64,000 nucleotides of DNA, taken from assembly GCA_963848295.1 (NCBI GenBank), contig CAWKDB010000010.1, positions 480,001-544,000 of the forward strand, given 5' to 3'. Shown in pieces: positions 29,836 through 33,781 of this stretch. Under the pieces are notes generated by a model. The model made no database searches and was not told the DNA's origin. It saw only the letters and a program-made list of their open reading frames with translations. How positions within the stretch are numbered: position 1 is the stretch's first letter; every line of letters starts with the position of its first letter. Source of the DNA: an uncultured delta proteobacterium (GTDB lineage Bacteria > Myxococcota_A > Polyangia > Haliangiales > Haliangiaceae). The position numbers and the translations under genes are program-made.

Positions 29836-29873
29836 GGCTAGCGCCCCCATCGCGATCGCGCGACGATGGAGAG

Positions 29874-31082
29874 ATGAAGCTCGCCGCGCTCGTCGTGCTC
29901 GCGATCGGCTGTGGCGGTGGCATGGGCGGTGGCATGGGCGGTGGCGGTGGTGGCGGTGGCGGCGGTGGCGGCGGCGGCGGCCCGACGACGCTGCTGGGCC
30001 GGCAAGAGCAGCTCGCGATGACGTTGCGGGGCACGACCGACTTCATGATCGGAGTCGGCAACGACAACACCGGGCCGTACGACCACGCGGTGCCGATCGA
30101 TCTGCACTACGCCTACCTCGACGGCTACGGCGACGAAGGCGGCTGGCCGACGTGGAACACCGACGGTGACTACCCCCTGTACTTCGAGCAAGCGGACGCG
30201 CCGCATGCGGTGTCGTCGTGGTTCACGTATTACCAGCTCGCGCTCGAGCTACAGAACAACAACGACGCGGTGCTCGCCGACCCGACGCGGATGGGTCAAT
30301 ACCTCAGCGACATGCGCCTGCTGTTCCAGAAGATCGACGACAACGGCGCGCCCGCGATCGTCCAGATCGAGCCCGACTTCTTCGGCTTCCTGATGCAGCG
30401 CGCGGCGAATGGCATGACGCCGGATCAAATCCCCGCGGCGGTCAGCGCACCCGAGTGTCCGAACGCGGCGCAGACGGTCAGCGGGCTCATGCACTGCGTC
30501 GTCGCGATCGGACGCGCGACCGCGCCCGATGCGCTGATCGGCTTCCACGCGTCGCAATGGGGCGCTTACTTCGATCCGACCGATCCGAACGCCGATGTCG
30601 CCGGGTCGGGCAAGACCGTCGCGGATTTCTTGATGTCGATCGGCGCCGACGGCACCGACTTCGTCACGGTCGAGACGCTCGATCGCGACGCCGGGTTCTG
30701 GGAGACCGACGGCGGCGGCACGACGTGCTCGGTGACCGACGGCTCGCGTGGCCCGGTCTATTGGGACGAAGCGAACGTCAGCTATCCGAACTTCGCGCAG
30801 CACCTCGCGTGGGTCAGCGCGCTCACCGCCGAGATGAACCTGCCGGCGCTCGAATGGCAGACCCCGCTCGGTGTCCCGTCGGATACGTGCGGCGGCACCG
30901 ACATGCATTGGCGCGACAATCGCGTGCACTACTTCTTCGGCCACGTCCCCGATCTGGTCGGCGCCGGCATCGCCGGGATGGCATTCGGGACGGGCGCCGG
31001 CGATCAAACCGATCTGAGCAGCGACGGCGATCAGCTCAAGAACGCCGCGACCGCGTACGCGGCTGCGCCGGTCGCGATGTAA
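29874..31082 (+). CDS. Lipoprotein with poly-Gly linker and putative glycoside-hydrolase-like domain
   Basis: MKLAALVVLAIGC lipobox and Gly tract, then QIEPDFFG and WQTPLG motifs. Function inferred only. Confidence 0.65.
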   Translation: MKLAALVVLAIGCGGGMGGGMGGGGGGGGGGGGGGGPTTLLGRQEQLAMTLRGTTDFMIGVGNDNTGPYDHAVPIDLHYAYLDGYGDEGGWPTWNTDGDYPLYFEQADAPHAVSSWFTYYQLALELQNNNDAVLADPTRMGQYLSDMRLLFQKIDDNGAPAIVQIEPDFFGFLMQRAANGMTPDQIPAAVSAPECPNAAQTVSGLMHCVVAIGRATAPDALIGFHASQWGAYFDPTDPNADVAGSGKTVADFLMSIGADGTDFVTVETLDRDAGFWETDGGGTTCSVTDGSRGPVYWDEANVSYPNFAQHLAWVSALTAEMNLPALEWQTPLGVPSDTCGGTDMHWRDNRVHYFFGHVPDLVGAGIAGMAFGTGAGDQTDLSSDGDQLKNAATAYAAAPVAM

Positions 31083-31083
31083 C

Positions 31084-31279
31084 GCCGGTTCCGTCACCGT
31101 CGCCGTCGCCGCTTCCGTTGCCGTCGCCGCTTCCGGTGCCGTCGCCATCGCCGATTCCGCGGCCGTCGCCGTCGCCGTAACCGTAACCGTAACCGTCTCC
31201 GCTGCAGATGCCGTCTCCGCTCCAGATGCCGTCTCCGCTGCAGATGCCGTCGCTGTCGCCGATGCTGTCGCTGTCGCCG
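31084..31279 (+). repeat. Degenerate hexamer tract (CCGTCG/CCGTAA) with an 18-bp sub-repeat ccgtctccgctgcagatg
   Basis: Visible directly. Lies immediately 3' of four-helix-bundle gene 1. Confidence 0.9.
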
Positions 31280-31651
31280 TCATTCGCGGCCCGATCGCCG
31301 GGGCCGCCGGCTGTGCGGCGGATGATCTCGATGGGTGAGGCGCCACAGGATCGCGCGGACGTGGTCGAGCGGCTCGTCGACCGCGGCGAAGTCCTCGGCG
31401 GAGATGATGCCGCGCGCCTTCGCGATCAGCAGCGCGGTCGTGAGCTCGCTCGCGCTGCCGGCGGCGCGCCGGAAGAAGTCGGGGCGATCGAGCCCAATGC
31501 GCATGCGGCCTTCGCTGAGATTGAGCGCGACGCTCTCGCCGGCGCGGACGATCTCGTCGGCGAGTGACTTTCGGGTGCGGCGAACCTTGGCTTCGATCGG
31601 GGCGAGCTGGTGCAGGACGGCGAGGGCGAAGTCGAGGGCGTAGAACGACAT
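31280..31651 (-). CDS. Four helix bundle protein (23S rRNA-IVP/bAvd-like), copy 1
   Basis: LADEIVRAGESVALNLSEG...FFRRAAGSASELTTALLIA matches the family pattern DQ..RA..SI..NIAEG...F..A.GS..E. RBS ggagg. Confidence 0.88.
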   Translation of the reverse strand: MSFYALDFALAVLHQLAPIEAKVRRTRKSLADEIVRAGESVALNLSEGRMRIGLDRPDFFRRAAGSASELTTALLIAKARGIISAEDFAAVDEPLDHVRAILWRLTHRDHPPHSRRPRRSGRE

Positions 31652-31673
31652 GAAGATCCTCCGAAGTGAGTGG

Positions 31674-31868
31674 CCGATGGGTGGGAACGTCTCTCTCTCG
31701 CCCTTCGCGCCGCACTCGCGCGGGTCCCGTGACGAGCGCGGGCGCTGACCACCGCACTCGCCGGCCGATCAACTCCGCGGCGGTCGCTCTCACACGCCGG
31801 CGCACTCGGCGCTCGGCGCGGGACAAGCGCGAAGCGGCGCAGGGCGAGAGAGACGTTCCGCCCGTCGG
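31674..31868 (-). ncRNA. Putative structured RNA leader upstream of four-helix-bundle gene 1
   Basis: Long closing inverted repeat (ggaacgtctctctcgccct / agggcgagagagagacgttcc) with nested stems. Homologous to 32024-32208 with compensatory changes. Confidence 0.6.
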
Positions 31869-31900
31869 CGCGAGCGAAGGAGCGTCGAGTGTTCTAAGGA

Positions 31901-32006
31901 CGCCGACGTCGCCGTTGCCGCAGCCGCAGCCGTTGCCGTCGCCGTTGCCGTCGCCGTCGCCGTCGCCGTTGCCGTCGCCGTTGCCGCAGCCGTCGCCGTC
32001 GCCGCC
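31901..32006 (+). repeat. Hexamer tract (CCGTCG/CCGTTG/CCGCAG)n
   Basis: Visible directly. Separates the two divergent leader + gene units. Confidence 0.9.
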
Positions 32007-32023
32007 TTTTGTCCTCGCGGCTT

Positions 32024-32208
32024 CCGATCGCCGGGGCCGTCGCCCTGCGCCGCTTCGCGCCAGCGCCGCGCCGAGCGCCGAAACCACCGACGCGCGCGGA
32101 GTACCGCCGCAGAGTTGGATCGACCGACGCGTGCGGAGGTTTGTGCCTGCGCTCGTCACGGCGCCGGCGCGAGTGCGGCGCGACGGGCGAGACGGCCCCG
32201 GCGATCGG
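32024..32208 (+). ncRNA. Putative structured RNA leader upstream of four-helix-bundle gene 2
   Basis: Closing stem ccgatcgccggggccgtc / gacggccccggcgatcgg. Same inner stems as copy 1. Confidence 0.6.
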
Positions 32209-32237
32209 TGCGCCGCTCATCCACGAAAGGAATCGCC

Positions 32238-32558
32238 ATGCTCGACGTCCTCGCTCAGTCGCTCACCGTCCTCGAACAGCTCGCCCCGGTCGAGCCGAAG
32301 CTGCGGGCTCGCCGCAAGTCGCTCGCCGACGAGATCGGCCGCGCCGCCGAGAGCGTGGCTCTCAACATCGCCGAAGCGAGCGCACGCGCCGGCCTCGATC
32401 GGCCCGACATATTCCGCCGGGCGTTCGGCAGCGCGCGCGAGCTGTCGACCGCGCTCATGATCGCCAAGGCGCGCGGCTACATCACCGCCGAGGACTTCGC
32501 CGCGATCGAGGCACCACTCGATCGCGTCCGCGCGATGCTGTTCCGGCTCACGCGGTGA
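32238..32558 (+). CDS. Four helix bundle protein (23S rRNA-IVP/bAvd-like), copy 2
   Basis: LADEIGRAAESVALNIAEA...FRRAFGSARELSTALMIA. RBS aagga. Clear paralogue of copy 1. Confidence 0.88.
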   Translation: MLDVLAQSLTVLEQLAPVEPKLRARRKSLADEIGRAAESVALNIAEASARAGLDRPDIFRRAFGSARELSTALMIAKARGYITAEDFAAIEAPLDRVRAMLFRLTR

Positions 32559-32605
32559 GCGCGCGCGCCGGCGCTGATTCCGGCACCCTTTGCCGAATTC
32601 AAACG

Positions 32606-32687
32606 AGCCGGAGCCGGAGTCGCCGTCTCCGCTGCCCTCGCCGTTTCCGCTGCCGTCGCCGTCACCGTCGCGGCTGCCGTCACCGCC
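32606..32687 (+). repeat. Degenerate hexamer tract (CCGTCG-like)
   Basis: Visible directly. Lies 3' of four-helix-bundle gene 2. Confidence 0.85.
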
Positions 32688-33781
32688 TAGTCGCCTTCGC
32701 CGACGACGACGCGCTCGACGCGAGGCAGCGCCTTCAACGCCGCGAGCGCACCGCGCGAGAGCTGCGTGCCGCGGACGTCGACGACGCGCAGCGCCGGCAA
32801 CGCCTTCAGGTGCGCGACGACCGCGTCGGTGATCCCGGTGCTCGCGAGCGAGAGCTCGGCGAGGCCGGCAATCGCGGCGAGCTTCGCGACGCCCTTGTCG
32901 GTGATCCGCGTGCGACCGGCGCGCAGGATCCGCACGTTCGTACCGGCGAGCGCGGCAAAGCCGACGTCGGTGACGTTTGCAGGCTCGAGGTCGAGCGTGT
33001 TTAGCGCCGGCAAGCGCGCGACGGCTTCGAGCCCCGCGTCGTCGAGCTTGCAATAGCGAATCGCGACGGTCGTCAGCTTCTTCAGTCCGCGCAGCTCGTC
33101 GAACCCCGCGCCGGTGATCGGCGCGCGCTCGATGTGGAGCTCCTCGAGCCCGGACAGCGGCGCGATCATCGAGAAATCGTCGTCGGTGACGGCGAGCTTG
33201 ATCAGCCGGAGCACGCGCAGCTTCTTGAAGCTCGCGAGCTGTCCGAGCCCGGCGCGAGACAAGCCACCGCCGCTGCGCGCCGCACCGCCGACCGAGAGGA
33301 TCTCGACATCGCCGCGCGCGAGCATCTCGAGGTGTGACGACGTCACCGCGGTGTTGCGCATGTCGGCGGCGATCAGCTCGCCCTGCGGACCGACGTCGCA
33401 CGTGCCGCCGAGCTCCTCGACCAACTCGATCAGATCGGCGTCGCGCCTCGGCACGGCTTCGACCTCGAGCGGGGCCCAGATCCCGGCGCCCGCCTTCTCC
33501 GCCGCTGCCACCGCCGCGCGATAGCTCGTTCCGGTCGGTACCCACTCTTCGGGCGCGAACAGCACGCCGCGCGGATCTTCGTGGGCGTCGAAGTCGTCGC
33601 CGAGCTTGGCGCTCAGCACCTCGACGACCTGCTCCGGTTGGAGCTCGAAGCCGACGAACGCGTAGCCGAGGTTGACGACCACGCAGTCGATGCCGATCGA
33701 CCGCAGCCGATGACGTTCGATCATCCGGCGACGAAACGCGGGATCCGGGATGTGAAGCAAAGCAATGGCATCGATGCTCAT
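32687..33781 (-). CDS. Leucine-rich repeat protein
   Basis: Repeats LxxLxLxxxxITDxG in the C-terminal half. Confidence 0.85.
   Translation of the reverse strand: MSIDAIALLHIPDPAFRRRMIERHRLRSIGIDCVVVNLGYAFVGFELQPEQVVEVLSAKLGDDFDAHEDPRGVLFAPEEWVPTGTSYRAAVAAAEKAGAGIWAPLEVEAVPRRDADLIELVEELGGTCDVGPQGELIAADMRNTAVTSSHLEMLARGDVEILSVGGAARSGGGLSRAGLGQLASFKKLRVLRLIKLAVTDDDFSMIAPLSGLEELHIERAPITGAGFDELRGLKKLTTVAIRYCKLDDAGLEAVARLPALNTLDLEPANVTDVGFAALAGTNVRILRAGRTRITDKGVAKLAAIAGLAELSLASTGITDAVVAHLKALPALRVVDVRGTQLSRGALAALKALPRVERVVVGEGD

Follow-up and report, generated by a model that had tools for sequence, protein, structure and literature searches.

A conserved, polar hairpin family shared by four-helix-bundle, DUF222-HNH and GxxExxY genes in Kofleriaceae

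Introduction

Folded, repeated sequences that lie beside small genes are known from several bacterial systems. REP and REPIN sequences, which with RAYT genes make up REPtrons and TIRtrons, are described (PMC3733652; see also PMC3337134, PMC3116915) as extragenic multicopy palindromes of 20–40 bp, often between converging genes and subject to local duplications; in REPtrons, inverted copies bracket the gene of an HUH tyrosine transposase (RAYT). The attC sites of integrons are imperfect palindromes with conserved unpaired features, in which one strand is purine-rich in its unpaired parts, more stable and endowed with G.T pairs, and one structure is common to unrelated cargo genes (PMC5027507, available text). 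The 23S rRNA intervening sequences (IVS) of Coxiella and Leptospira carry the S23p reading frame within a stem loop, with a stem and short tandem repeats beside the ORF and a poorly accessible ribosome-binding site (PMC4990558, in the part available). In diversity-generating retroelements (DGRs), Avd accompanies a template RNA, and PF05635 is stated to be homologous to Avd from a comparison of 4DWL with 2GSC (accessible part of PMC10053308).

Free-standing four-helix-bundle (FHB) genes of the PF05635 family, DUF222-HNH genes and GxxExxY genes occur widely and in many copies, and apart from special cases no function is known for them. The DUF222-HNH repeat genes of Actinomycetota are known as REP13E12. 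Here we analyze a hairpin of ~180 bases, found in myxobacterial genomes and absent from Rfam, that is associated with all three of these gene families and resembles each of the systems above in part. The family is undescribed in the searchable literature: subscription papers and supplements aside, we found no description of the hairpin or of its link to FHB, DUF222-HNH or GxxExxY genes.

Results

A double cassette between two converging host genes

The locus lies in a 64-kb stretch of DNA (hereafter, the window) from a genome of 7.8 Mb that is 85% complete and whose FHB genes have their nearest relatives in Kofleriaceae. Its parts are as follows.

29850-31082: host gene on the left flank of the cassette; the left array starts right after its stop codon
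31084..31283, no strand: left degenerate (NCCGNN)n hexamer array, directly 3' of the host gene stop
31280..31651, minus strand: FHB gene A (PF05635/TIGR02436), ATG at 31651, 107 homologous codons
31684..31859, minus strand: hairpin copy 1 (A type), stem end 32 nt from the ATG at 31651; apex of 69 nt at 31740-31808, held between core arms 31809-31817 and 31729-31739
31899..32006, no strand: central (GCCGNN)n array, separating two divergent units
32024..32208, plus strand: hairpin copy 2 (B type), stem end 29 nt from the ATG at 32238; core arms 32070-32078 and 32149-32159, 70-nt apex 32079-32148
32238..32558, plus strand: FHB gene B (PF05635/TIGR02436), 106 aa, ~70% identity to A
32605..32686, no strand: right (NCCGNN)n array, running up to the stop of the LRR gene
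32687-33781: convergent LRR gene on the right flank

The two outer arrays thus abut the stop codons of two converging host genes. An initial annotation, made from the letters alone, had proposed two homologous structured leaders in the window, each ending shortly before the ATG of an FHB gene. All of the stems it quoted were found where it had placed them, and the stems end 32 nt (copy 1, whose outer stem has a 2-nt GA bulge) and 29 nt (copy 2) from the respective ATG. The two copies are ~80% alike over 153 nt, and each folds better than 200 of 200 dinucleotide shuffles (z −6.2 and −9.2). Beyond copy 1, about 35 more nucleotides (to about 31895) are conserved and able to pair with the ribosome-binding region. 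No Rfam family reached its gathering score anywhere in the window, and within 31000-32800 the only matches were two below threshold (E 2.1 and 3.4), in agreement with the view that the leaders belong to no named RNA family.

Both genes are FHB genes, as had been supposed, with scores of 44.8 and 53.2 bits for PF05635 (cut-off 33.8) and of 46.1 and 50 for TIGR02436 (cut-off 24). A profile of the family was closest among solved structures to 2GSC (E 1e-17) and 2RLD (E 9e-7) and, unlike these, the Avd structure 4DWL was not matched in that search; a single-sequence AlphaFold model (pLDDT 80) had no Foldseek match at E 0.001, the best being 2GSC at E 0.04. By homology to 2GSC and 2RLD, the FHB protein is probably a pentamer. 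The reading frame of gene A extends 16 codons beyond the stop present in its paralogues. We also noted that 21 nt from the outer stem of hairpin 2 recur at 31286-31306, just 3' of gene A, where the paralogue stop has been lost.

Hairpin anatomy and covariation

At the core of the hairpin stands an invariant helix, YGCCGAGCGC/GCGCTCGTCAY, which contains one C.T mismatch and, in most cases, one C.A mismatch. Below this 11-bp core the median number of Watson-Crick pairs in the lower arm is 46 (65 sequences, <80% identity), and above it stands an apex of fixed length (66-76 nt, ~70 nt) that contains conserved words, folds no better than shuffles (mean z −0.15, 65 sequences) and has no Watson-Crick covarying pair that stands out. 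The inner ccgc/gcgg stem proposed earlier does form in the two window copies but is not a property of the family, and the supposedly unpaired words are partly paired, since tcac falls within the invariant helix. A short class of hairpin, with a 36-39-nt apex, has the core in common with the long class. The ribosome-binding site is paired with the 5' arm in 15 of 25 FHB leaders.

Both folded leaders are real and conserved with covariation. Among 29 sequences collected protein-first, 7 of 18 pairs change on both sides (covariation 0.247, compared with 0.061 when shuffled); among 51 mostly hairpin-first sequences, in which eight to ten core columns were fixed by the search pattern and unable to vary, 13 of 27 pairs do so (0.307 vs 0.118), and slid controls reached at most 0.111. 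The earlier claim that pairing is kept where the copies differ was thus borne out.

Genome-wide counts were obtained with an exact core pattern, which misses divergent and short forms, and with one model search of five genomes. The pattern occurred in 49 of 138 family genomes and in 3 of 17 genera, and a reversed control pattern had no match in the same 138 genomes. In a draw of 301 genomes from the phylum it was essentially limited to the family; 295 genomes outside the family gave two matches, both within unrelated sequence. Matches in metagenome and viral scans were mostly due to chance, with clear family members at 5 of 119 and 0 of 28 loci, respectively, and a single viral match at E 0.026. 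The hairpin family is broader than the initial annotation supposed. One genome, G010, contributes one row to the alignments and counts, and no conclusion rests on it. Rearrangements centred on the hairpin were seen at L153/L201 and L162, as tandem copies without the apex, and in genome G023 conservation drops sharply at the outer foot of the hairpin. At L184, the end of a host gene is duplicated into the apex.

A multicopy cassette with arms and protein under selection

Array, gene A, hairpin, array, hairpin, gene B and array follow one another in this order at 11 sites in the genome, one of them with a truncated gene B, in addition to one solo unit and one broken unit. A covariance model combined with a nucleotide profile found 23 whole hairpins and one truncated hairpin, and all 24 lie directly ahead of an FHB gene. 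The sites are intergenic and frequently come straight after a host stop codon, and the central array varies in unit and length among the 11 copies. Paralogues differ by 0-2.4% in the arms, 10-11% in the apex and 16-18% at synonymous sites, and pN/pS of the FHB genes is 0.18 (10 A genes) and 0.14 (9 B genes). The conservation of the arms against this synonymous divergence, together with the low pN/pS, indicates that arms and protein are both under selection.

Thirteen orthologues of the left flank gene were retrieved within the genus, and the downstream region was read in 11 distant ones and in the sister genome G117. Downstream of all 11 distant orthologues there are no arrays, hairpin or FHB gene; in G117, two foreign genes replace unit A, and unit B has decayed. 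The window cassette therefore appears, from this comparison of orthologous loci, to be a recent insertion. With respect to insertion sequences and MITEs, we found neither a target duplication nor a conserved word at the termini, and no empty site was clean; the cassette ends dissolve into variable arrays, and the corresponding region of the sister genome is rearranged. The two genes at the place of unit A in G117 (G117:C187:4400-6700; L444, L458) are unrelated genes that lie between arrays, and one looks protease-like by eye.

Among the (NCCGNN)n arrays of this genome, 62 of 91 are away from cassettes, some of them coding; the non-coding ones among these 62 may be landing sites or footprints. 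The apex words CCGCCGCAG were considered as a template of the arrays, and this idea was rejected because the arrays of units A and B run in opposite orientations, which do not follow the variants of the apex.

The genome also holds a second, leaderless FHB family (G000:C2:271083, C2:797188, C10:3467581, C10:4056361 and C10:2647165; L125, L126, L129), whose elements have 15-nt inverted ends and short GTTGAC-type arrays at their borders, with group II intron copies at the ends of or inside several of them. The FHB gene at C2:797188, which adjoins a reverse transcriptase (RT) and looked like part of a DGR, is a leaderless element of this kind beside a group II intron.

The strand opposite the mRNA is favoured for folding

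Mismatches in the lower arm are distributed unequally between the strands. Counted on the FHB mRNA strand of 65 non-redundant hairpins, C.T outnumbers A.G by 170 to 14, C.C outnumbers G.G by 61 to 20, T.T outnumbers A.A by 40 to 4, and A.C outnumbers G.T by 86 to 44, counts that overstate significance because the sequences are kin and not independent. The fixed C.A and C.T of the core are T.G and A.G on the strand opposite the mRNA, and this strand is the more stable one in 60 of 65 hairpins by DNA energies and in 44 of 65 by RNA energies. Short and mid hairpin classes have the same bias, which resembles that described for attC bottom strands in the available text of PMC5027507. Three columns of alignment A3 are rich in U-G pairs on the mRNA strand (23, 23 and 8 of 51). 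Overall, the mismatch pattern makes the strand opposite the FHB mRNA the more likely one to fold. The bias identifies the strand and not whether DNA or RNA is folded, as pyrimidine mismatches also fit RNA helices.

Loops of the C-GNA-G type are described as stable in DNA (PMC3201870, available part). The long class gave no GNA-triloop signal (9 sense vs 3 antisense). In Polyangiaceae and other Myxococcota (L090-L105), a different class of FHB leader has two small apical hairpins; it was not matched by our hairpin model R2. Its C-GNA-G triloops lie on the opposite strand (24 vs 1), its sense RNA folds better in 12 of 12 cases, and G.T pairs outnumber A.C (11 vs 3). We set these triloops aside as support for opposite-strand folding, the evidence from them being mixed.

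One hairpin, exchangeable cargo

For a count that starts from the hairpin and not from the protein, 90 loci were taken from 150 listed pattern matches, with 31 further matches lying outside that list; these loci held 95 distinct matches, of which one (L441) was due to chance and was dropped (n = 94). Among the matches listed, an FHB gene lies directly behind the hairpin in sense in 51 of 94, a GxxExxY nuclease gene in 3 and a DUF222-HNH gene within 2.3 kb, with no FHB gene first, in 25; a contig edge was reached in 5, and none of these cargo genes was present in 10. A fourth GxxExxY hairpin came from a metagenome (L246). With one mixed case included, 26 of the 94 listed hairpins have a DUF222-HNH gene on their 3' side (15 in sense, 11 antisense), and no hairpin has one on its 5' side, 5' flanks being mostly ~700 nt. 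The hairpin therefore turns its 3' side to the cargo. In most cases this cargo is an FHB gene; otherwise it is a GxxExxY gene or a DUF222-HNH gene, the latter in either orientation. The 11 antisense hairpins are downstream of the HNH gene. The distance from hairpin to HNH gene differs by hundreds of bases between loci, and at L385, L389 and L417 inward-facing hairpin pairs bracket the HNH gene.

The model search of five relatives likewise found hairpins without an FHB gene. The proteins beside them have 380-600 aa and match DUF222 and HNH, some with a RuvA_C end. Intact hairpins have multiplied without FHB, with 12 in G023 and several in G089, G005, G003 and G065. In G023, a hairpin, whole or split, flanks 12 of the 13 HNH genes on one side. 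In G003 (91% complete) and G005 (95%), there are 5 and 6 pattern matches, respectively, and no PF05635 match was found. The initial annotation had taken the fold to be the cognate RNA (or ssDNA) partner of the FHB protein and had named leaders that are both independent of FHB genes and untranscribed as evidence that would speak against it. Of these two features the independence was found, in the DUF222-HNH and GxxExxY neighbours and in the two genomes where PF05635 was not detected. The proposed partnership is only partly supported: the fold is conserved and FHB is its commonest partner, while an exclusive RNA partnership is unsupported.

On the hairpin tree, the HNH label changes 13 times, with at least 7 changes on starred branches. 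Leader classes cluster on the FHB tree, where labels are noisy, with loose patterns and visible errors. At L176, hairpin, FHB gene and HNH gene stand intact in a row, and at L185, L190 and L403 FHB pieces remain between hairpin and HNH gene, which suggests that FHB is the older partner. Perfect tandem repeats precede 27 of 44 FHB hairpins, 1 of 24 HNH hairpins and none of 3 GxxExxY hairpins, compared with a background of 1.2% of random windows; the arrays thus belong with the FHB gene and not with the hairpin.

Several further features were noted at these loci. The 3' ends and flanks of DUF222-HNH genes at L176, L389, L195, L411 and G000:C10:2181466 carry repeats of the short palindromic words CCCACGTGGG and CCCATGGG, possibly REP-like repeats of their own. 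A group II intron lies antisense after the third codon behind the hairpin at L257, and a three-recombinase element interrupts the HNH gene between the two hairpins of L417.

Candidate mobilising enzymes

No candidate enzyme was always present. Within the genus, a DUF222-HNH match was found in 37 of 42 genomes with the pattern and in 35 of 49 without it, a weak difference, and the pattern is missing from many genomes rich in HNH genes. In the window's genome, neither of the two intact DUF222-HNH genes has a hairpin alongside. The hairpin has also spread in G097 (93% complete; 4 near-identical hairpins) and G115 (98%; 7 hairpins), where the hairpins examined, 4 of 4 in each, head FHB genes and where we found neither a DUF222-HNH match nor a Y1 match.

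A RAYT-like Y1 transposase was considered as the mobiliser and rejected. Y1 matches are present in 87 of 91 genus genomes, which makes their presence uninformative, and were not found in G097 and G115. At the nine RAYT-like Y1 loci of the window's genome, model R2 had no match; among the matches listed, a Y1 gene lies on the 5' side of 3 of 94 hairpins. RAYT-like Y1 genes (L131-L139, G000:C10:2181466) have a conserved upstream stretch in common, part of which recurs behind one DUF222-HNH gene, and one Y1 gene abuts an element of the leaderless FHB family. The four RT matches of this genome look by eye like the group II intron type, and no RT was found at the hairpin cassettes examined. In this 85% complete genome, the best match to the integron integrase model TIGR02249 scored 73.8 against a cut-off of 265.

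Discussion

We propose, with a confidence that falls somewhat short of an even chance, that the hairpin is a cis-acting, polar and strand-specific DNA structure marking selfish mini-cassettes with exchangeable cargo in Kofleriaceae. The strand opposite the cargo mRNA would fold when single-stranded, during replication or through read-through from converging host genes. A structure-specific protein may then read the invariant helix through its G.T and G.A mismatches and license nicking and strand transfer while the cassette is copied. FHB would have been the first passenger and would bind nucleic acid in an accessory role, with the tandem arrays, which follow FHB and not the hairpin, as the likelier target. 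DUF222-HNH elements would have captured the hairpin signal repeatedly and, where present, offer the best candidate nuclease. On the mRNA, the palindrome would often bury the ribosome-binding site, which may be a secondary, self-silencing effect. Of this picture, conservation, polarity, strand bias, spread and the exchange of cargo are shown, and the rest is proposed. It also draws on the recent insertion, on the rearrangements at the hairpin and on the link of tandem repeats to FHB. Against it count the lack of an enzyme common to all genomes (G097, G115), the HNH-rich genomes without the pattern, the intact HNH genes here without a hairpin, the U-G columns on the mRNA strand, the pairing of the ribosome-binding site that an RNA leader would have, and the failure to find a target duplication, a conserved terminal word or a clean empty site.

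Much of the evidence on FHB could also be read, in a rather unlikely alternative, as that of a 5' leader RNA through which an Avd-like ribonucleoprotein controls its own translation, the copies beside nucleases being leftovers after FHB loss. The FHB gene is always close behind in sense (51 of 51), its ribosome-binding site is paired in 15 of 25 leaders as an RNA leader would have it, purifying selection acts on the protein (pN/pS 0.18 and 0.14), leader classes cluster on the FHB tree, and the intact row at L176 and the FHB pieces at L185, L190 and L403 fit this reading. Against it, intact hairpins have multiplied without FHB in G023, G089, G005, G003 and G065, they persist where PF05635 was not found (G003, G005), 11 of them lie antisense and downstream of an HNH gene, and on the mRNA strand G.U pairs are rarer than A.C mismatches. 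OMEGA and HEARO systems combine an RNA scaffold with a nuclease. By analogy, the opposite strand could be transcribed outward from the cargo as a structured non-coding RNA, a scaffold and possible guide (through its ~70-nt apex or flank) for an HNH or PD-(D/E)XK nuclease, with FHB as a chaperone. We consider this very doubtful: it would account for G.U and G.A being the common non-canonical pairs of that strand, for an apex of fixed 66-76 nt with conserved words and no fold, for the sharp end of conservation at the outer foot in G023 and for the opposite strand being the HNH mRNA strand where hairpins lie downstream of HNH genes, but most hairpins have no adjoining nuclease gene, spacing to HNH genes varies by hundreds of bases, the apex does not covary, and no promoter was identified.

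It is also quite unlikely that the hairpin is a passive insulator that ends or silences read-through without a dedicated enzyme and is spread by host recombination or slippage via the hexamer arrays. Such an insulator would suit sites directly behind host stop codons, the 62 of 91 arrays away from cassettes that could serve as landing sites, the spread in G097 and G115 without candidate enzymes, and the RAYT-like genes that are also found on the 5' side (3 of 94 hairpins, among the matches listed). An invariant mismatch helix and a fixed 70-nt apex, however, would be superfluous in a terminator, HNH-linked hairpins have spread without arrays (1 of 24), and all 24 hairpins of this genome are linked to cassettes, with none alone behind an ordinary gene.

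Beyond the reading as a strand-specific DNA mark, an unlikely but wider possibility is that the hairpin serves as the recognition site or RNA scaffold of an undescribed mobilisation system common to three orphan families, in which FHB rings would bind the arrays and DUF222-HNH(-RuvA_C) or GxxExxY nucleases would cut or transfer the folded strand. If this were true, DUF222-HNH proteins would gain their first substrate, and free-standing PF05635 genes would have a function. Regardless, one defined structure, with its mismatch helix, fixed-length apex, polarity and preferred strand, is tied to three gene families in one bacterial family, and it offers a substrate for binding and cleavage assays and a route to learning how such genes spread without a transposase.

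Among described systems, REP and REPIN sequences are like the hairpin in being extragenic multicopy palindromes, often between converging genes, with local duplications, and the bracketing of nuclease genes by inverted copies (L385, L389, L417) recalls the REPtron in architecture only. The hairpin differs in its size (~180-200 nt with a 70-nt apex, vs the 20-40 bp of REPs) and in a consensus without their GTAG/CGTC foot; the bracketed gene is DUF222-HNH and not a RAYT, and most copies carry an FHB gene. With attC sites it has in common the imperfect palindrome with conserved unpaired features, the purine-rich, more stable strand with G.T pairs, and the use of one structure by unrelated genes. 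The RYYYAAC/GTTRRRY boxes are absent from the hairpin consensus (51 sequences), the hairpin precedes a gene that keeps its own ribosome-binding site, cassette arrays in the same orientation are absent here, and no integrase exceeded the cut-off in this genome. The 23S rRNA IVS have the protein family in common with the hairpin cassettes, as well as a stem with short tandem repeats beside the ORF and a ribosome-binding site that is poorly accessible, whereas the cassettes are intergenic between protein genes, multicopy and not in rRNA, with the FHB gene outside and after the stem and not within its loop, as the available part of PMC4990558 has it.

The likeness to DGRs lies in the reported homology of PF05635 to Avd and in a structured sequence beside the gene (PMC10053308, accessible part), and the difference in the cassettes examined having no RT and in the RTs of the genome looking like the group II intron type. 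As in REP13E12, the partner nuclease has DUF222 and HNH matches and exists in many copies; in the present family, the hairpin that brackets it also occurs with FHB and GxxExxY cassettes, and some members end in a RuvA C-terminal domain. By their defining features, the hairpin is not a REP, an attC site, an IVS or part of a DGR, and by analogy it would work most like a REPtron or TIRtron with attC-like strand selectivity.
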